DNA from: Candidatus Yanofskybacteria bacterium
GTDB lineage: Bacteria; Patescibacteriota; Minisyncoccia; 2-02-FULL-40-12; GWA2-44-9
Assembly (NCBI GenBank): GCA_020852375.1
Contig: JADZAY010000009.1
Span: forward strand, 12,690-76,689
DNA: 64,000 nt
Direction: 5' to 3'
Each line of letters opens with the position of its first letter. Position 1 is the first letter of the stretch. Both the position numbers and the translations under genes were made by a program. Shown here in pieces: positions 2,936 through 46,145 of this stretch. The notes under the pieces are model-generated. The model saw only the letters and a program-made list of their open reading frames with translations, ran no database searches and was not told where the DNA came from.

Positions 2936-3022
2936 GGAGGCGTGGCAGAGTGGTCTAACGCGCCGCACTCGAAATGCGGTTGGGGAGAAATCCCCTCGGA
3001 GGTTCGAATCCTCCCGCCTCCG
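2936..3022 (+). tRNA. tRNA-Ser(CGA)
   Basis: CCGCA-CT-CGA-AA-TGCGG, long variable arm, G73. Confidence 0.97.
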
Positions 3023-3074
3023 CAAATGATCTTCGGAATGCCGTTTGGCATTGTGAAGATCATCCGCAAGAGAT

Positions 3075-3192
3075 GTGGGGGATTCGAAGGGCGGACCGCT
3101 GCGACATCAGCTGATGTCGCCGGGAGCCCGTGCCCAGGCCGAGGCGAGCGACGGCGAGCCGAGAGCCGAGGGAGAATCCTCCCGCCTCCGCA
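3075..3192 (+). repeat. tRNA-tail Y-shaped element, Ser(CGA) copy
   Basis: Left end GGGGATTCGAA (inverted T-arm); right end 3174-3192 is a 19-bp copy of 3006-3024; shared two-arm core. Confidence 0.9.
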
Positions 3193-9498: not shown

Positions 9499-11481
9499 AT
9501 GAATCCCATCCTCGACGGCCTCAATGAAAAGCAGGTCGAAGCCGTCACCACCACCGAAGGGCCCGTGCTGGTCATCTCGGGACCCGGGTCCGGGAAAACG
9601 CGCGCGCTCACGCACCGCATCGCGTACCTCATCGCGTCCGGCGTCCGCCCCGAGCATATCCTCGCCGTCACCTTCACCAACAAGGCGGCAGGGGAGATCA
9701 AAGAGCGGGTGACCTCGCTCCTCGGGCACCGTACCTCGCCGGCGGCGCGCCATCCCATTCCGACCATCGGCACGTTTCACTCAATCGGACTCCGCATACT
9801 TCGCCGACACGCGGAACGCATCGGATACGGTACGAACTTCACGATCCTCGACAGCGGAGATCAGCAGGCGCTCATTCGGCGCATCAGCGCCGATCTTGAG
9901 CTCGACTCGAAACGATACAGTCCGGGATCACTGCTCGGCAAGATCCAGAAACTCAAAACGGAACTCGTCGGACACCATCAGTACACCGGCACCGGACACA
10001 CGGAAAAGATCCTCGAGCGCGTGTACCGAGCGTACCAGGGTAGATTGGAATCGATGAACGCCGTCGACTTTGGAGACCTCATCTTCCTGACCGTCCGACT
10101 TCTCCGCGAACACCCCGATATTCTCGCGCACTATCAGGGCTTGTGGCGCTACCTCCTGGTAGACGAGTATCAGGACACCAGCCACGATCAGTACACGCTC
10201 ATCAATCTTCTTGCGGCAGGGCACGGTAACATCTTCTGCATCGGGGACGACGCGCAGTCGATCTACCTCTTTCGCCAAGCAGACATTCGGAACATCCTGA
10301 ACTTCCAGCGTGATTGGCCGAACGGAAAAGTCATCCTTCTTGAACAAAACTACCGCTCAACGAAAACCATCCTCGCGGCGGCACAGGCAGTCATCTCGAA
10401 TAACGCATCACAGATCCCGAAGGAGCTGTGGACCAACAATGCAGCGGGGGAGCAGATCACGGTTACCGAAACGGTCAGCGAGCGCCATGAGGCGCAGCAC
10501 CTTATTGAAACCCTCCGGACGCTCCAGCGCCGCCGATACACGCTGGCCGACTGCGCCGTTCTGTATCGGACCCATGCGCAGAGCCGCGCGCTCGAAGAGC
10601 AGCTCGTCCGCGCCGGCATCCCGTACCGCATCGTTGGTGGTATCCGGTTCTACGAACGAAGAGAGGTGAAGGATATTCTCGCGTATGCGCGCCTCCTCGC
10701 AAATCCGAACGACACGGTGAGCTTCGAGCGCATCGCCAATGTTCCCGCGCGCGGCATCGGGACGACGACCATCGACCGCCTCCTCGCCACTGACGCTCCG
10801 GATCGCATCTCGGCCGTCGGCATCCTCGCGCAAGAATATCCACCGACCGGAAGGGCGGGGAAGTCGCTCGATTCGCTTCATTCGCTTCTCGTGCGTCTCC
10901 AGCGCATTGCGCAAGAAAAGAAGCCGAGCGAAGTCATTCGTGCCATCCTCAAGCACACCGCATACGAAGACTATCTCCGCACTCAAAAGGGCCAGGATGC
11001 CGAGAGCGCCGAGGAGCGCGTTGAGAACGTACGCGAACTGCTGACCGTCGCGGCAAAGTACGACTCCGAAGGCTCTGCCGGTATGCGAACATTCCTCGAA
11101 GAGGTCGCGCTCCTTCAGGACACCGATCAGCTCGCCGCCGAAGACGCCGCCGTCACGCTCATGACCATGCACGCCGCAAAAGGCCTCGAGTTTCCAGTCG
11201 TATATGTTTGCGGCATGGAGGAGGGCCTCTTCCCGCACAGTCGGACCGTGTGGGCCCCGCATGAGCTCGAAGAGGAGCGCCGTCTCTGCTATGTTGCCAT
11301 TACTCGGGCTAAGGAACGCCTGTTCATCAGTCTTGCGAAGTGGCGCAACATTTTCGGTTCTCGGCAAGCGAACATTCCTTCCCGTTTTCTTTCGGAGATT
11401 CCCGCGCACCTGCTCTCGTGGCAGCGGATCGAACCCGACGACCGCTCTGCCGACGACGAGCGCATTGACTATGACTTCTAA
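9499..11481 (+). CDS. pcrA: ATP-dependent DNA helicase UvrD/PcrA
   Basis: GPGSGKT, VDEYQD, GDDAQSIY, QNYRST, HAAKGLEF, YVAITRA. Confidence 0.95.
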   Translation: MNPILDGLNEKQVEAVTTTEGPVLVISGPGSGKTRALTHRIAYLIASGVRPEHILAVTFTNKAAGEIKERVTSLLGHRTSPAARHPIPTIGTFHSIGLRILRRHAERIGYGTNFTILDSGDQQALIRRISADLELDSKRYSPGSLLGKIQKLKTELVGHHQYTGTGHTEKILERVYRAYQGRLESMNAVDFGDLIFLTVRLLREHPDILAHYQGLWRYLLVDEYQDTSHDQYTLINLLAAGHGNIFCIGDDAQSIYLFRQADIRNILNFQRDWPNGKVILLEQNYRSTKTILAAAQAVISNNASQIPKELWTNNAAGEQITVTETVSERHEAQHLIETLRTLQRRRYTLADCAVLYRTHAQSRALEEQLVRAGIPYRIVGGIRFYERREVKDILAYARLLANPNDTVSFERIANVPARGIGTTTIDRLLATDAPDRISAVGILAQEYPPTGRAGKSLDSLHSLLVRLQRIAQEKKPSEVIRAILKHTAYEDYLRTQKGQDAESAEERVENVRELLTVAAKYDSEGSAGMRTFLEEVALLQDTDQLAAEDAAVTLMTMHAAKGLEFPVVYVCGMEEGLFPHSRTVWAPHELEEERRLCYVAITRAKERLFISLAKWRNIFGSRQANIPSRFLSEIPAHLLSWQRIEPDDRSADDERIDYDF

Positions 11482-40300: not shown

Positions 40301-40373
40301 CCGCCCTTAGCTCAGTTGGTAGAGCTGCTCCCTCTTAAGGAGAAGGTCGTAGGTTCGAATCCTACAGGGCGGA
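40301..40373 (+). tRNA. tRNA-Lys(CUU)
   Basis: CCGCCCT/AGGGCGG acceptor, CT-CTT-AA loop. Confidence 0.94.
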
Positions 40374-40420
40374 CCGATACAGAAAAGCAACACCCGTTTG
40401 GGTGTTGCTTTTCTGTATAT

Positions 40421-40555
40421 TGGTGGCCCGCTGTAGGGTTTGAAGCCCGGAGCGATGTGGCGGCAGCGGCCGACACCGCGAGGGCCGGAGCCCGGAGGCG
40501 GACGGCTCAGACCGGGGGCCGTTCGACCGGAGGGTGAATCCTACAGGGCGGACCA
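40421..40555 (+). repeat. tRNA-tail Y-shaped element, Lys copy
   Basis: 19-bp direct repeat 40536-40554 = 40357-40375; inverted end 40421-40444. Confidence 0.92.
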
Positions 40556-40597
40556 CATAAACCAAAACACCCCGCGAGGGGTGTTTTGGTTGAGGCC

Positions 40598-41143
40598 TTA
40601 CTGGATGACCTCGATCTGGACGAGGCGGCGACCCAGCTTGAGTGCGGCGGCCTTATCGGCAAACCACACGTCAACGTTCTTCTGGTACCGGGTGTTCATG
40701 CGGTCCTCGACAACGAAGATCTTGTCACCGAACAGTGACGGGATCTTGATGACGGTACCGAACGGGAACATGTTCGTGGCGACGATACCGTCACGCACGT
40801 GGGTACCCTTTGCGGTAATGAACGGGCTGTCGTCGGTCTGAGCGGCCTCGGAGTTGTACGCAGACACCTCAACAAGGTAGGTCTTTCGCAGAGCCTTCTT
40901 CGTACCGCCGACCGGCGAGTTTGCCGGGACCACGGCATTTGCCATGAGCATCGGCCTCTCGTCGTCGGTAGCTCCCGAAGAGAGCACCGAAGCGTACAGT
41001 TGGTCGAAGGATCCCTCGTGGGCAACCTGGGAGCTAGCACCGTTTGAGCGGAACCAGTCCATAAGGCCTGCCTGGGCTGACAGGGAGGTCGACAGTGTGA
41101 TGGCAATGAGCGTAGCTACCAGAATCAGCTTGCGCGTCTTCAT
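40598..41143 (-). CDS. Secreted 3D-domain protein (MltA/Sps-like lytic transglycosylase)
   Basis: Signal peptide; SAYNS...QTDDSPFITA, VEDRM, VDVWF. Confidence 0.9.
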   Translation of the reverse strand: MKTRKLILVATLIAITLSTSLSAQAGLMDWFRSNGASSQVAHEGSFDQLYASVLSSGATDDERPMLMANAVVPANSPVGGTKKALRKTYLVEVSAYNSEAAQTDDSPFITAKGTHVRDGIVATNMFPFGTVIKIPSLFGDKIFVVEDRMNTRYQKNVDVWFADKAAALKLGRRLVQIEVIQ

Positions 41144-41316
41144 GGTGATGCCGTCTCCGATATCCGCAGATGAGCCGCAGTTGGCTTTCGCTGGGCAGCT
41201 CACGGACAACGCAGAGGGCGGTATTGCAATCCGGCTCAGGTACGGGGGAGGGATGAAAAAATGGCCTATCAAGCCATTCCTGCATTTGCCTCATCTACAC
41301 GCTGGATTGTACATAC

Positions 41317-41345
41317 AGTATAGCAAAACCGGCTCAAAAAGTCAA
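41317..41345 (-). promoter_or_regulatory. sigma70 promoter TTGACT-17-(TGC)TATACT driving a long leader
   Basis: Consensus spacing, extended -10. Confidence 0.75.
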
Positions 41346-41473
41346 TAGCCAAAAAGCCCTTAAAATAGGCTTAAAATAAGAAAAAAATGAACATTTTTGC
41401 CCAGAGATCAGCGGATTCTTCCGGAGGGGTAGGGGGTTGATTTTCGGCGTGTTCAGGCTATACTAGGCAATAC

Positions 41474-41544
41474 GCGGGCATCGTATAGTGGTAATACGCG
41501 ACCTTGCCAAGGTCGAGCCAGGGGTCCGATTCCCCTTGCCCGCT
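41474..41544 (+). tRNA. tRNA-Gly(GCC)
   Basis: GCGGGCA acceptor, TT-GCC-AA, U73; T-loop reads TCCGATT. Confidence 0.93.
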
Positions 41545-41793
41545 CAGACCAGAGAAAGCCCCCCGCACGGGGGTTTTCTGTTGGGGGAGGTGGTTGTGTC
41601 GCAAAATACATACTTCGCACAATATCGCACTGAGTGGATCGGTGTGGATATGCCCGGTGATTACGGCCGTGTCGCACAACCGTATCGCGGACGGTTCCCG
41701 TGTGGATATCGAGCGGGGATATCGAGAATGTCGCACAACCATTTGAGAAGCGGCGGCCTTGCGTGGCGCGATGGACGGTGCCACAATAAGGCC

Positions 41794-42159
41794 ATGGATA
41801 AACTACTGTTCGTCTATGGGACCCTCATGCAAGGCATGCGGAACCATGTGTACCTGGAAAAAGCGACCCTTGTGGGACCGGCTGAAACGAAGCCGGAGTA
41901 CGAGCTTCTGTATAACGGATCGATCCCTGCCATGCGCCCGGGTAGCGAGTCCGTAAAGGGAGAGTTGTACGAGGTGAATGACGAGATACTCGCGGGCCTC
42001 GATGTGGTGGAGGATGTCGCGGCAAACCTTTATGAACGGCATGAGATCGAGGTTGGGGGGAAAACGGCGATAGCATACCTGGGAGGGAATATCTTCAACC
42101 AGGATTCCTGGGAGCATGTCCCGAATGGGGACTACCGGGCCCTCATGGAGGCAAAATAG
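41794..42159 (+). CDS. Gamma-glutamylcyclotransferase family (AIG2-like)
   Basis: LFVYGTL, VKGELYEV, LDVVE. Confidence 0.92.
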   Translation: MDKLLFVYGTLMQGMRNHVYLEKATLVGPAETKPEYELLYNGSIPAMRPGSESVKGELYEVNDEILAGLDVVEDVAANLYERHEIEVGGKTAIAYLGGNIFNQDSWEHVPNGDYRALMEAK

Positions 42160-42238
42160 GAGCCGACTGCACCGCGCTTTCGGGCCGCGTTCCCGCCTTG
42201 AAAATGCGGGCAAAATGGTGTAGGATATGCCTGCTAAT

Positions 42239-42322
42239 GCGCGGGTGGCGAAACTGGCAGACGCACTACCTTGAGGTGGTAGCGCCCGCAAGGGCATGGA
42301 GGTTCGAGTCCTCTCCCGCGCA
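42239..42322 (+). tRNA. tRNA-Leu(GAG)
   Basis: CTACC-TT-GAG-GT-GGTAG, long variable arm. Confidence 0.96.
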
Positions 42323-42402
42323 CACTTGGCCACTCCTTATTCTGCATGTATGAAGGAAGTGGCTGGCCAAGTGTCCTGAGCGCATAGGCGCGAAGGACTA
42401 CA
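42323..42402 (+). repeat. tRNA-trailer repeat family II, copy 1
   Basis: CACTTGGCCACTCCTTATTCTGCATGTATGAAGG...; homologous to 45226-45333 and 45576-45663 (minus strand). Confidence 0.9.
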
Positions 42403-42415
42403 GTGGTTGCGGTAT

Positions 42416-42488
42416 GCGCGCTTAGCTCAGTTGGTAGAGCATCTCATTGACGTTGAGAGGGTCGTAGGTTCGAGTCCTACAGCGCGCA
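42416..42488 (+). tRNA. tRNA-Val(GAC)
   Basis: TCTCA-TT-GAC-GT-TGAGA. Confidence 0.96.
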
Positions 42489-42496
42489 CAAATTTG

Positions 42497-42871
42497 TTAG
42501 TTTTTTAGTCTCTTCCCCCGATAGTGAGCCGCTTCGGCGAGGAATCGTTCGTCATCTTTTGTGCTATGCCTGACGGCGTGGCAATTCGCACAGAGAAGAG
42601 TGCATTTCAGGATCTCTGCCCGGATGCTCTCCCAGCTCTTGTTCGCGACATTACCGAGAGTGAAGTCTTTCTTTTGTGGATCAAGATGATGGAATTGAAG
42701 GGCGGCCTGATGGCCCCTCCAGCCACAATCCACGCACTTTCCGCCGAGGATGCGTATGGCAGCCGCCTTGGTTCGATAGCGCCGGATCTTGGTGTTGCAG
42801 GCCCCGCATCTGGCGCGCATTTTCCCCTGGTAATCGTTGTACTCTTTGCCGCATAGTTTACAGATCGTCAT
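42497..42871 (-). CDS. HNH endonuclease-like protein
   Basis: GGKCVDCG...LQFHHLDPQKK...KCTLLCANCHAVRH; N-terminal zinc finger. Confidence 0.9.
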   Translation of the reverse strand: MTICKLCGKEYNDYQGKMRARCGACNTKIRRYRTKAAAIRILGGKCVDCGWRGHQAALQFHHLDPQKKDFTLGNVANKSWESIRAEILKCTLLCANCHAVRHSTKDDERFLAEAAHYRGKRLKN

Positions 42872-42945
42872 GCCTTGAGTATAGCAAAATGCGCTCTACC
42901 AAGAGAGATTGCAGGGGGACGGATTTTGTGATACCGTATACACAT

Positions 42946-43223
42946 GCCGCGGTAGCTCAGTGGTAGAGCGCAGCCCTAAATCTTTGGGGCTTTCCGCAGG
43001 AATGCGGATTGAGAAATCGGGTGAATTCGGGGGAACTCCGGAACGGTCTGGACAATCCCGAGCCGAGCTCCGTGGGGTATCCAAAACGGAGAAGGTGTAG
43101 AGACTAGCGGGTGAGCCCAACAATACTCCCGCACAAGCGCCCGACCTCCAGAACGGAGGATGATATAGTCCAATTCAGCTTCGGAAGAGGCTGGCGTCGG
43201 GGGTTCAATTCCCTCCCGCGGCA
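42946..43223 (+). tRNA. tRNA-Phe(GAA), interrupted (exons 42946-42977 and 43184-43223)
   Basis: Joined exons give CAGCC-CT-GAA-GA-GGCTG and a GCCGCGG/CCGCGGC acceptor. Confidence 0.93.
42978..43183 (+). ncRNA. Group I intron (206 nt, no ORF)
   Basis: U before the 5' splice site, terminal G, P1 AGCCCT/GGGGCT, P3 TCGGGTG/CGCCCGA, P7 AGAGACTA/GATATAGTC. Confidence 0.92.
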
Positions 43224-43270
43224 CAAAGTAAACTAAAACCGCCCCTCAGGGCGGTTTTAGTTTACTTTCC

Positions 43271-43411
43271 TGCTCGCGGCCGGGAATTGAAGGGCATCGA
43301 GCCGAGCGAACTGCTTCGCTCGGTGAGAGCCCGGGCTCCGGGGGAGCATCGAAGCGTCCGCCGAAGGCGGCTGCGAAGATGCGGAGGAGGAGAATTCCCT
43401 CCCGCGGCACA
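43271..43411 (+). repeat. tRNA-tail Y-shaped element, Phe copy A
   Basis: Inverted end ...GGGAATTGAA; right end AATTCCCTCCCGCGGCACA is the tRNA-Phe 3' end. Confidence 0.88.
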
Positions 43412-43462
43412 GAAGCAAAAGCCGACCCCATGTGGGGCCGGTTTTTGCTTTTACGTATCGTG

Positions 43463-43587
43463 GCGGGAGGGAATTGAACGCCGGAGCGATGCGGTATCAG
43501 CTGATATCGCCGCGAGGCGGTGGCCAGCCCGAGCGTCGCGACGGCGCCGCGAGAGGCGAGGCCAATGACTGACCCCTCCCGCGGCAC
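43463..43587 (+). repeat. tRNA-tail Y-shaped element, Phe copy B
   Basis: Exact inverted GCGGGAGGGAATTGAAC; right end CCCTCCCGCGGCAC; core closely similar to the Ala and Val copies. Confidence 0.92.
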
Positions 43588-43631
43588 CGGTACACAAAGC
43601 CCCCGAGAATCGGGGGCTTTGGTTTGGAGCA

Positions 43632-44048
43632 TTACTCGGTGGCAGCCTCTTCGGGTGCCGATTCCTCGGCCTCGACCGCTTTGGCGGCGACCGCCTCGGC
43701 GCGGGTCTTCTTGCGGATCTCCTTGGCGCTCTTCTCGCGGAGGTAGTACATCTTCGAGCGGCGGGTGCGGCCGGTCTTTACGACCTCAACCTTCTCGATG
43801 GAGGGGAGGCGGATGGGGTAGACCTTCTCGACGCCATATCCTCCGGCTGAGCGGCGAACGGTGATGGTGCCGCCGGCCTCGGTGCCATGCTTGCGGGCGA
43901 TGACGATACCCTCAAAAACGCTCGCCTTGCCCTTTTCGCCCTGCTTGAGCTTCTGGTGGACGCGAACGGTCATACCAACGGAAACACCCGTGAAGCGGTC
44001 TTCAGGGTTATGCTTTGCCGAGAATGCAGAAATGACGTGTTGAGACAT
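43632..44048 (-). CDS. rplS: 50S ribosomal protein L19
   Basis: FEGIVIAR, GVEKVYP, RRSKMYYLR. Confidence 0.96.
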   Translation of the reverse strand: MSQHVISAFSAKHNPEDRFTGVSVGMTVRVHQKLKQGEKGKASVFEGIVIARKHGTEAGGTITVRRSAGGYGVEKVYPIRLPSIEKVEVVKTGRTRRSKMYYLREKSAKEIRKKTRAEAVAAKAVEAEESAPEEAATE

Positions 44049-44063
44049 GGGGGAGTTGCAAAC

Positions 44064-44765
44064 TTAAACGCCGGAAGATTCTAGCATATCCAAGGTTTTT
44101 TGCAAGTCCTGGGGGAGGTCGGCTTCCAGGGCAAGGGCTTTGCCGTCCGGGCTTGTGAGGCGGAGCTTCCAGGCGTGCAGGAAGAGGCGCTCAAGGCCCG
44201 GCGGGAGAGGCTTCTTTGCCGCGTAGAGCTTGTCGCCGGCGAGGGGGCAACCGATATGCTTTAGATGTACCCGGATCTGGTGGGTGCGGCCCGTTTTTGG
44301 CATGGCGCGCACGAGTGTGTAGTCGGGGTACGAGCGGAGGACCTCATAGTCGGTGACGGCATCCCGGACAACGAGCTCGCGCTTGCCTTTGATCTGGGTG
44401 GTCTGCTTGGTGCCCAGTTTTCCCAGCGGGGCGTCGATGGTTCCCGATGCCTGCGCGGGGCGTCCGTGCACAAGGGCGAGGTATTCTTTTTGGGTCTGCC
44501 GGGTCTGGAAGAGGTTCTTGAGGTACTCGAATGTCGGCTGGTCCTTCGCGATGACCATGATGCCCGACGTCTCCTTATCCAAGCGATGCACGATGCCGGG
44601 GCGGAGCGGGGATTCGCCAACGCCGGCGAGGTACGGTCGTTCGGCGACGAGCATATCCGCCACCGTGATCTGGGGGTCGGTGGGGCTTACTTTGTGCACC
44701 GCAATGCCATACGGTTTGTTGATGGCAAAGAGATGTGCGTCTTCATAGATGACGGGGAGGGTCAT
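44064..44765 (-). CDS. RluA family pseudouridine synthase
   Basis: GIVHRLDKETSG, TGRTHQIRVH, LFLHA. Confidence 0.95.
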   Translation of the reverse strand: MTLPVIYEDAHLFAINKPYGIAVHKVSPTDPQITVADMLVAERPYLAGVGESPLRPGIVHRLDKETSGIMVIAKDQPTFEYLKNLFQTRQTQKEYLALVHGRPAQASGTIDAPLGKLGTKQTTQIKGKRELVVRDAVTDYEVLRSYPDYTLVRAMPKTGRTHQIRVHLKHIGCPLAGDKLYAAKKPLPPGLERLFLHAWKLRLTSPDGKALALEADLPQDLQKTLDMLESSGV

Positions 44766-45190
44766 GCGTTCAATGCTTTCTTGAACATTGAGAGAGCGAG
44801 GTCTGCGCTGATAAGGTTGACGGGGATTTCATTGAGTCCGAACCACTGCCACTTCTCAAACTTCTCGGGTTCCATGAGCTTTGGTTCTTGGTCGGTTGCT
44901 ACCTCGAACACGAATACATGGTCGCGTCCGGTCTCATCAATGTATGCGCCCGGATACTCACCGAGCTTCCGGACAATGCGAGCGTCCGTGACCCCGATTT
45001 CCTCCTCGATTTCTCGGATGACGGTGGACTCGGGAGCTTCACCGGCGTCGCATCTGCCACCGGGAGCGACCCATAGTGAGGTATCGTGGTAGTGGCGAAG
45101 ACCGAGTAGAATCTTCCCATTTCGAATGATGACCGATGATGTGCAGTTGTGGTTCTTTGGGGAATGAGATTCGTAGAATTTCGGCGACAT
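44762..45190 (-). CDS. NUDIX hydrolase
   Basis: GGRCDAGEAPESTVIREIEEEIG Nudix box. Confidence 0.92.
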   Translation of the reverse strand: MSPKFYESHSPKNHNCTSSVIIRNGKILLGLRHYHDTSLWVAPGGRCDAGEAPESTVIREIEEEIGVTDARIVRKLGEYPGAYIDETGRDHVFVFEVATDQEPKLMEPEKFEKWQWFGLNEIPVNLISADLALSMFKKALNA

Positions 45191-45225
45191 GGCGATGAGA
45201 AGGTGGTAAATACGTTTCTTGTGGC

Positions 45226-45333
45226 GGAATTATTGTAACTCTCCGCGCCTGCCTGCCGGTAGGCAGGCCCATGCGCTCGGGGCACTTGGCCAGCCACCCC
45301 CTTCATACATGCAGGATAAGGAATGGCTAAGTG
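45226..45333 (-). repeat. tRNA-trailer repeat family II, copy 2, with a 20-bp palindrome inserted at 45248-45267
   Basis: Hand alignment with copies 1 and 3. Confidence 0.9.
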
Positions 45334-45449
45334 TGGGCGGTAGAGGACTCGGCTTTGTCTCTCGCGTCGCCGTTGCGACGCTCGGATTAGCCACCGCCTC
45401 GCGGCGCCACCTACTGGCGGCGCATCGCTCCGGCGTTCGAGCCTCTACC
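45333..45449 (-). repeat. tRNA-tail Y-shaped element, Val(UAC) copy
   Basis: 19-bp direct repeat 45333-45351 = 45502-45520; inverted end 45435-45449. Confidence 0.92.
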
Positions 45450-45502
45450 ATTCGCTAACTGTATCAAATACAACATGCCAAATGGCATCTTGTATTTGAT
45501 AG

Positions 45503-45575
45503 TGGGCGGTAGAGGACTCGAACCCCTGACCCTCGCTGTGTAAAAGCGATGCTCTACCAACTGAGCTAACCGCCC
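45503..45575 (-). tRNA. tRNA-Val(UAC)
   Basis: TCGCT-TT-TAC-AC-AGCGA. Confidence 0.96.
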
Positions 45576-45663
45576 GGAATTATTGTAGCCCCGCGAACCC
45601 ATGTTCTCGGGACACTTCGCCAGCCAACTCCTTCATACATACAGAATAAGGAGTGGCGAAGTG
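45576..45663 (-). repeat. tRNA-trailer repeat family II, copy 3
   Basis: CACTTCGCCA...TGGCGAAGTG, a compensatory variant of the stem. Confidence 0.9.
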
Positions 45664-45788
45664 TGGGGGGAGCCTGGATTCACCCTCCGGTCAGGCCTGC
45701 GCCGTCGCTTGGCCTGCCTTCGGGCTCCGGCCCTCACGGTCGCGCCTGCTGGCGCGACATCGCTCCGGGCTTCGAATCCTATCACTCC
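45662..45788 (-). repeat. tRNA-tail Y-shaped element, Ile copy
   Basis: Inverted TAGGATTCGAA; right end GAATCCAGGCTCCCCCCAC; core closest to the Lys copy. Confidence 0.9.
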
Positions 45789-45838: not shown

Positions 45839-45912
45839 TGGGGGAGCTAGGATTCGAACCTAGGACCACCAAGGTATAAGCTTGGCGCTCTAACCAGCTG
45901 AGCTACTCCCCC
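45839..45912 (-). tRNA. tRNA-Ile(UAU)
   Basis: CCAAG-CT-TAT-AC-CTTGG, A73. Confidence 0.88.
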
Positions 45913-46145
45913 TGAATCAATTGTAGTTTGTACGCTTTTCCCTGACGTTTGATCTGCTGCTCTCGCTTGGTTGCCGAACCGCGATCCGGATGTCGCTCAG
46001 TATACAGCAGGGTGAACGGGCCGCGCCCTCGGGTGTACTTTGCCCCCGTACCCGCTCGATGCTGTGCGATGCGCGCGGCGATGTCGGTCGTGATCCCGGT
46101 GTACAGCGTACCATCACCGCACTTCAGGATGTAGACGACGTACAT
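45903..46145 (-). CDS. GIY-YIG nuclease family protein (UPF0213-like)
   Basis: VYILKC.DGTLYTGIT...RIAQH..G.GAKYTRGR...KREQQIK. Confidence 0.93.
   Translation of the reverse strand: MYVVYILKCGDGTLYTGITTDIAARIAQHRAGTGAKYTRGRGPFTLLYTERHPDRGSATKREQQIKRQGKAYKLQLIQGE

Follow-up and report, generated by a model that had tools for sequence, protein, structure and literature searches.

Short repeats that carry a copy of the end of the gene behind which they lie have been described in Escherichia coli as tRNA-linked repeats (TLRs). They are defined by an 18–19-bp copy of the 3′-end of the upstream RNA gene and have no known function, which in the account of PMC8144298 has been the case since their description in 1978. 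The words 'inverted' and 'mobile' do not occur in the main text of that paper, and its supplements may describe the inverted arm considered below. The units analysed here are situated in a 64,000-nt stretch of DNA (the window, meaning that stretch at its full length) from Candidatus Yanofskybacteria bacterium, a member of the candidate phyla radiation (CPR) (GenBank assembly GCA_020852375.1, contig JADZAY010000009.1, positions 12,690–76,689). The source genome, a 744-kb metagenome-assembled genome (MAG), is referred to as G000 and the closest relative examined (rplS 89% identical) as G003. The CPR units work like TLRs and are structurally akin to them, homology not being claimed, and they belong to a family that is real, widespread, mobile and retargeting.

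Other described systems resemble the units in some respects. In the tRNA/tmRNA islands with T-loop-class sites collected in Islander, the resident gene tail gives way to one supplied by the insert, and the direct copy begins in the T loop (available text of PMC4383910). A regenerated gene with a displaced 3′-fragment is present in the CPR units also; the islands, however, are 2–200 kb in length and carry an integrase, whereas the units are about 150 bp, have no integrase, include an inverted copy and occupy dozens of different targets. REP/REPIN sequences with RAYT, MITEs, RPE and CIR are likewise short, palindromic, non-coding, multicopy and non-autonomous, but their ends, as presented in the available text of PMC3733652 and PMC3184786, are fixed, while those of the CPR units are rebuilt from each target. 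The SRM/NTS hairpin repeats of the Ssn GIY-YIG nucleases are orientation-specific and found in symbionts, and tiny single-domain GIY-YIG genes are a further point of likeness; Ssn cuts single-stranded DNA a few bases 5′ of its hairpin, and the available text of PMC11893778 reports no duplication of gene ends for SRMs. The GIY-YIG genes of the present genomes, in contrast, have no flanking core. The comparison literature also includes PMC12045711. Nothing like the CPR units is described in the available literature on TIGR arrays, and searches of the literature found no description of the CPR family.

Units in the window and their likeness to TLRs

A preliminary description of this DNA had proposed seven units, each with the order tRNA, hairpin, inverted copy, core and direct copy, and all seven were found to be present in that arrangement. 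The units are non-coding. Their ends are indeed matched to the host tRNA, as had been claimed: the direct copies are exact in five of the seven, extending over 19 nt for the Ser, Lys, Phe1 and Val units and 25 nt for the Ala unit, and those of Phe2 and Ile are damaged. A single core common to all the units had also been proposed, which is correct for six of them. Using R1, a covariance model of the core built from 30 sequences, these six gave scores of 39–99 bits; Phe1 reached only 20.5 bits and therefore belongs to a different, second core family arranged in the same manner. A three-way junction fold was obtained for every unit (z values from −2.8 to −5.1). No Rfam family matched the units at the gathering score, and none was convincing at E values up to 5 (RtT was not among the matches). 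With regard to possible misassembly, Logan contigs from two runs extend across five of the units (Lys, Phe1, Phe2, Val and Ile) with zero differences; these contigs derive from one study, possibly the source of the assembly, and hence are not independent of it.

On the forward strand, tRNA-Ser(CGA), identified by tRNA search (2936–3023), is followed by a terminator-like spacer hairpin (3026–3063) and the Ser unit (3075–3192), which comprises an inverted copy (3077–3088), a core (3090–3173) and an exact direct copy (3174–3192). tRNA-Lys(CTT) (40301–40375) and its hairpin (40377–40418) precede the Lys unit (40421–40555), with an inverted copy ending at 40444, the core at 40446–40535 and the direct copy at 40536–40554; another hairpin is located 3′ of the direct copy (40560–40591), and G003 has the orthologous unit. 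tRNA-Phe(GAA) and its hairpin (43225–43268) together occupy 42946–43268. Two units are found behind them, separated by a hairpin (43413–43450): Phe1 (43271–43411; inverted copy 43275–43291, core 43293–43392, direct copy 43393–43411), which is present in G003, and Phe2 (43463–43587; inverted copy 43463–43478, core 43480–43563, damaged direct copy with 14 exact nt at 43574–43587), which is not. This tRNA gene is real but split, as ARAGORN detects it only with introns allowed and Rfam places a group I intron of 72 bits at 42968–43193. The intron-containing gene (42946–43224) has an intronless counterpart in G003, and an intron is present in G010.

The remaining units are on the reverse strand. 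tRNA-Ala(GGC) (5629–5558) and its hairpin (5555–5518) are followed by the Ala unit (5505–5383), which is absent from G003 and consists of an inverted copy (5505–5492), a core (5490–5408) and the exact 25-nt direct copy (5407–5383). tRNA-Val(TAC) (45575–45502), with its hairpin (45501–45462), precedes the Val unit (45449–45333; inverted copy 45449–45436, core 45434–45352, direct copy 45351–45333), and tRNA-Ile(TAT) (45912–45838), with its hairpin (45835–45797), precedes the Ile unit (45788–45662; inverted copy 45788–45771, core 45769–45682, imperfect direct copy 45681–45662).

For comparison, TLRs were analysed at four E. coli K-12 loci, with copies at tyrT/tyrV (RtT), arg, lys and rrn. In the nine tRNA-linked units a common hairpin core is flanked by an inverted arm and by a direct copy matched to the host; the best match of the arm is the unit's own tRNA in seven of the nine, with one tie and one degenerate case. 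The tyr units have the same GA-GAA junction as CPR copies; in the 5S-linked unit the core is present and the inverted arm is weak. A host-matched inverted arm, a common hairpin core and a host-matched direct copy are thus all found in TLRs, and the earlier claim that the arrangement has no known counterpart cannot be upheld. Both kinds of unit are situated 3′ of tRNA genes, with direct copies of similar length; both have GC-rich cores common to the copies, and both occur in tandem, the lysQ duplication taking in the terminator. The host-matched inverted arm of TLRs derives from the present analysis and is not stated in the main text of PMC8144298. There are also clear differences. The cores are unrelated by model, as R1 gave 7.7 bits on three TLR loci and RtT was not matched in the Rfam search of the units, and in CPR genomes as many as about 20 tRNAs are followed by a unit. 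The CPR units also turn over rapidly, are found at the ends of protein genes and obey a 2-nt junction rule. On the strength of the common layout, the CPR units and TLRs may be one kind of tiny selfish DNA, and TLRs are thereby offered a testable origin in a tractable host.

Distribution, occupancy and turnover

A profile search of G000 resulted in 22 matches with E values of 0.001 or better, representing 21 distinct copies, since one unit is split across a contig overlap. Of these, 18 begin 53–69 nt behind a tRNA or tRNA-like copy or stand in tandem; one is behind the tmRNA gene across a contig break, and two are parted from their tRNA by inserts. As a control for chance, an inverted copy of the gene's own positions 54–65 was found shortly downstream of 17/45 tRNAs in G000, compared with 91/4500 random stretches. 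At tRNA-Asn, an island of about 7 kb with a large serine recombinase (L010, G000 C19:9000–17000) displaces the Asn-type unit from the tRNA.

The family extends well beyond this genome. Within the order, 61 genomes were searched with R1 and 46 of them, among them G000, contain the family, at 0–19 matches per genome; across the phylum it was detected in 5/151 genomes, where 29 candidates per genome were scored and the figure is no proof of absence elsewhere. At least 120 genome loci and at least 119 metagenome loci were obtained in pattern scans, and the 119 metagenome loci listed comprise 102 distinct true copies, 13 chance matches and four duplicates. Three pattern matches in viral contigs all lacked the stem, and no true copy was found there or in the phage records searched. 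The units mimic att scars and sit at contig breaks, which gives them practical relevance. Further core families with the same inverted and direct layout were observed at Arg(GCG), just upstream of the window (G000 C9:12184–12400), and a Phe1-like core with that layout is present at Glu(CTC) in G003 (L203).

Occupancy was compared by hand at the 45 tRNAs common to G000 and G003, the automatic calls (16 differing tRNAs) having held at least three errors. It is apparent that presence or absence of a unit differs at approximately 15 of these tRNAs, eight being occupied in G000 only and seven in G003 only. Clean empty sites were found at Ile(TAT), Ile(GAT) and Val(TAC), the first and last being those of the window Ile and Val units, which G003 lacks. 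In each, the empty allele joins the flank beyond the direct copy, and the variable block therefore consists of tail, hairpin, inverted copy and core. Where the tRNA allele itself differs between the two genomes (Arg(CCG), Gly(TCC)), the unit ends follow each genome's own allele. The closest core sits at a different target in 20/22 cases and the cores do not group by target, for which reason target-specific core lineages were rejected. As an example, the core of the window Ser(CGA) unit is identical to that of the G003 fMet unit at 81/84 positions, with the hairpin and ends differing. Many truncated copies are present. The differences in occupancy and the host-following ends agree with the earlier proposal of a non-autonomous, mobile element that draws its ends from the target.

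The possibility that a unit arrives with a new tRNA body was also considered and rejected, as occupancy was not associated with the divergence of the tRNA (Fisher p 0.75, based on the automatic calls with their three or more errors). Many of the tRNA genes with the same anticodon differ between G000 and G003 by 10–30 bases, which suggests frequent tRNA gene replacement. At G000 C5:64800–64961, tRNA-Pro(TGG) has behind it a tRNA-like segment whose tail is that of another Pro allele, namely the one in G003, and the unit that comes next matches this tail.

Targets, junction and origin of the units

Two sets of copies were analysed, and paired figures below refer to set 1 and set 2, respectively. 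In set 1, 109 of 140 copies are located no more than 260 nt from a tRNA; in a subset of 95, 78 are of the T-loop type and most of the other 17 begin at tRNA position 72. The inverted arm matches its own tRNA at 6.6/8, compared with 4.2 for other tRNAs, and the corresponding values for the direct copy are 11.1/12 and 5.5, as expected if the ends are matched to the host. Targeting is not restricted to tRNA genes, as had been supposed. Copies with equally adapted ends are found at tmRNA, topA, rpsI and a gene which, from its C-terminus, we take to be rpsR.

A simple rule describes the junction: the inverted copy takes in two target bases that lie 5′ of the point at which the direct copy begins. 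For the T-loop class, the inverted copy matches positions 54–55 in 78/78 and 47/47 copies and the direct copy in 2–3%, but these positions are universal and the class is defined by that match, so that the other targets provide the informative test. There, the inverted copy matches the target at −1 in 24/27 and 20/21 copies, at −2 in 22/27 and 19/21, and at −3 in only 2/27 and 1/21 (rows with a poor upstream match were left out of the set-1 count). At sites that distinguish the tRNA from the direct copy, the inverted copy agrees with the tRNA at 32/37 and 26/27 and with the direct copy at 0 and 1. The two ends had been thought to pair and so to close a three-way junction; each unit does fold in that manner, but a maintained pairing of end with end is not supported. 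No selection for it is evident from these sites, and the tRNA-following pattern could also arise if only the direct copy decays. Folding five window units as DNA places the inverted arm in a duplex with the tail of the tRNA.

The ends of protein genes were compared at eight loci, of which four have clearly been recoded synonymously, the others being mixed, identical, frameshifted and not alignable (one of each). Synonymous and non-synonymous tail differences numbered 8/2 at L123, 3/0 at L077, 4/0 at L375 and 12/9 at L354, and the inverted arm has the gene-side allele at 8/8 sites (L123, L077, L375, L354, L065). Within the inverted copy, many units have an additional hairpin whose distance is fixed (62/84 end within a 2-nt window), and some direct copies take in the whole host terminator.

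In the core stems, 26/32 pairs covary, compared with 0/500 shuffles. This was not taken as proof of an RNA, because palindrome correction yields double changes and because the search pattern partly fixed arm 1. The mismatches are purine-rich and favour the sense strand (102 purine–purine and 34 G–T, against 11 and 11), and the persistence of such bulges suggests recognition by a protein.

The explanation favoured here, and considered probable, is that the units are non-autonomous TLR-type mobile DNA cassettes that enter the 3′-end of a conserved gene and rebuild that end. The inserted block is composed of gene tail, terminator-like hairpin, inverted tail copy and a two-arm core of about 85 nt, the resident tail staying behind as the direct copy. 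The limits of this block, its mobility, the copying of its ends from the host and the junction rule are regarded as shown. It seems likely that recombination between lineages would then carry an existing cassette to further alleles of its gene, that palindrome correction would keep it matched to the gene-side tail, and that recombination of tail with direct copy would remove it. The manner in which a new target is gained is suggested with more reserve: the single-stranded core might close a staggered cut with a 2-nt 3′-overhang by forming a hairpin cap, with repair or fold-back at the downstream hairpin rebuilding the gene end. Overhangs of 2 nt at the 3′-end are common products of GIY-YIG enzymes. 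As the cutter, a small free-standing nuclease of this family is conceivable, if rather doubtful, in which case it would act in trans on folded sense-strand single-stranded DNA. SbcCD destroys hairpins, and sbcD was not found in 5/5 element-rich genomes (the control was found in 13/14). That result, the sense-strand purine mismatches and the covarying stems are the additional data cited for this explanation.

Because the junction rule implies a cut of specific geometry, it lends itself to a direct biochemical assay. If the explanation is right, streamlined CPR genomes host a fast-moving non-coding parasite that safely colonises the ends of essential genes and swaps those ends between lineages. 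A bolder and decidedly speculative extension is that a single, hitherto unrecognised class of protein-free mobile DNA comprises both the units and TLRs. Such DNA would write its own ends for each target: a folded core would cap the 2-nt-staggered break at the 3′-end of a gene, leaving that end in one inverted and one direct copy, and a miniature nuclease would act in trans as the mobiliser. Such a class would amount to a self-retargeting transposition mechanism and would explain TLRs.

A number of observations weigh against the cassette explanation. The empty sites are equally consistent with precise loss and with gain, and remnants are present at two of them (fMet in G000 and Leu(CAG) in G003). 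Gene conversion among old copies could account for the 96% match of the Ser and fMet cores. The Logan contigs, which were the material covered, contained no excised or circular form. The offset reads 1–3 nt in a few copies, where the last core C is ambiguous, and the short E. coli TLRs show no clear 2-nt rule; in one G003 Asn unit, the inverted arm matches the direct copy and not the tRNA. Among the protein-gene tails, L018 has six synonymous and six non-synonymous differences, L065 is frameshifted, L059 is identical and L298 has no alignable direct copy. No recurrent mobility family was found among 150 flanking ORFs, and no autonomous copy was seen. Lastly, the profiling of copy number against nuclease and recombinase families proposed earlier gave rho values of 0.02 for GIY-YIG counts, −0.15 for Y1 and 0.01 for tyrosine recombinase in 61 related, and thus non-independent, genomes, which indicates no correlation.

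Three other explanations were considered, and on balance the family is very probably mobile DNA. An unlikely but coherent one dispenses with a dedicated enzyme: template switching during replication, by fold-back at the terminator hairpin and a switch to another copy through the universal T-loop microhomology, would build the units and, with gene conversion, spread them. The T loop is common to all tRNAs, whole host terminators are found in some direct copies, and the lack of a detected sbcD would suit this process equally. Moreover, a GA variant at junction positions 57–58 overrides the host in 14/78 copies and co-occurs with the fixed extra hairpin (24/30 versus 60/121, p 0.004), so that donors contribute junction bases. 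Template switching does not, however, readily account for the same 2-nt offset at tRNA 3′-ends, topA, rpsI and rpsR, which have no common T loop, or for asymmetric core bulges that persist despite rapid change in the stems and imply protein recognition.

It is less probable still that the host maintains the units as a structured RNA, transcribed through the tRNA terminator and then cleaved at the tRNA-like 3′-end in the manner of the E. coli rRNA-linked TLRs. The sense strand has a stable fold with G–U and tandem G–A pairs, and the RrA/B/F TLRs are transcribed, processed and bound by Hfq and CsrA (main text of PMC8144298), but gain and loss are fast between close relatives, many copies are truncated, genomes of a single genus contain anything from 0 to 19 copies, and the inverted and direct copies that would have to close the RNA do not covary. 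Least probable of all, and very improbable in absolute terms, is a recombination site, either an attC- or CTX-like folded single-strand site for a host Xer-type recombinase or a decoy attB protecting the tRNA, the attC-like site and the decoy having been put forward in the preliminary description. Direct and inverted target copies could fold into a double-stranded site, the strand-skewed mismatches recall attC (available text of PMC5027507), and a tyrosine recombinase is encoded in 55/61 genomes, with one in G000. Yet the direct side lacks the TT of GTT, so that no RYYYAAC/GTTRRRY pair (R box) is formed, and the units bound no gene cassettes, their flanks being housekeeping genes. In contrast to a shared crossover core, the direct copy lacks the two bases that lie 5′ of the junction, and a serine-recombinase-type 2-bp crossover was rejected on the same ground. 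As for the decoy, the serine-recombinase island at tRNA-Asn sits between the working tRNA and the unit and so used the tRNA, not the direct copy.

Candidate enzymes and neighbouring genes

Other candidate mobilisers were sought in addition to the cutter proposed for the cassette. A Y1 transposase is present in only 2/12 genomes with eight or more copies, and PF01797 (Y1 HUH transposase) had no match in G000, G001, G003, G005, G011, G026, G033, G047, G053 or G057; RAYT, which was not found in several element-rich genomes, was rejected. IS110, with its bridge RNA, was rejected also, PF02371 being found in 0/5 genomes, and this sets the units apart from the IS110 and TIGR systems, Tas itself not having been searched for. 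Reverse transcriptase was rejected because it was detected in 3/5 genomes only, with none in G001 or G003. The genomes searched for RAYT, IS110 and reverse transcriptase are MAGs of 94–100% completeness, and these negatives are to be read as 'not found'. In G000 there are four stand-alone reverse transcriptase genes of 329–376 aa (C3:10745–11734, C8:810–1844, C8:46068–47153 and C21:4360–5490), which are possibly DGR-like.

Three small nuclease genes, two HNH and one GIY-YIG, had been noted beside tRNAs. One HNH and the GIY-YIG assignment are clear, and the second HNH is a weak Pfam match below the cut-off (E 0.0027). The free-standing HNH genes are located at 2384–2875, beside tRNA-Ser(TGA), and at 42497–42871, between tRNA-Val(GAC) and tRNA-Phe, the latter being absent in G003. 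The GIY-YIG gene (80 aa; 45903–46145, reverse strand) abuts tRNA-Ile, and its product is closest to UPF0213 structures, in which it differs from Ssn. G003 has this gene without an Ile unit, and it is therefore probably outside the element.

Small single-domain GIY-YIG genes were found in every genome searched. The core was directly 5′ of none of the 28 GIY-YIG loci listed, and 17 of these loci adjoin a tRNA, which in six of them is followed by a unit, the set being enriched for loci of this type. The link to adjoining nucleases proposed earlier is not sustained, given the GIY-YIG rho value reported above and the position of most of these genes in a separate 5′-side cassette. Cassettes of this type, which are common in relatives, were observed at G000 C8:26080–26400 and C5:12750–13110, each with a partial tRNA copy split by a double hairpin, a small GIY-YIG gene and an intact tRNA (Cys and Gln). 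Their hairpins were rejected as autonomous partners, as they do not resemble the core by eye. An ORF right at the end of tRNA-Leu(CAA) (G000 C12, tRNA 9919–10004) appears LAGLIDADG-like, by eye only.

A second tRNA-trailer family, with a long hairpin and a conserved tail, was observed in the window at 42324–42410, at approximately 45250–45332 and at 45590–45661, and after tRNA-Thr(GGT) on C6 of G000. Its members begin exactly at tRNA 3′-ends or behind direct copies, and they too are polymorphic with respect to G003.

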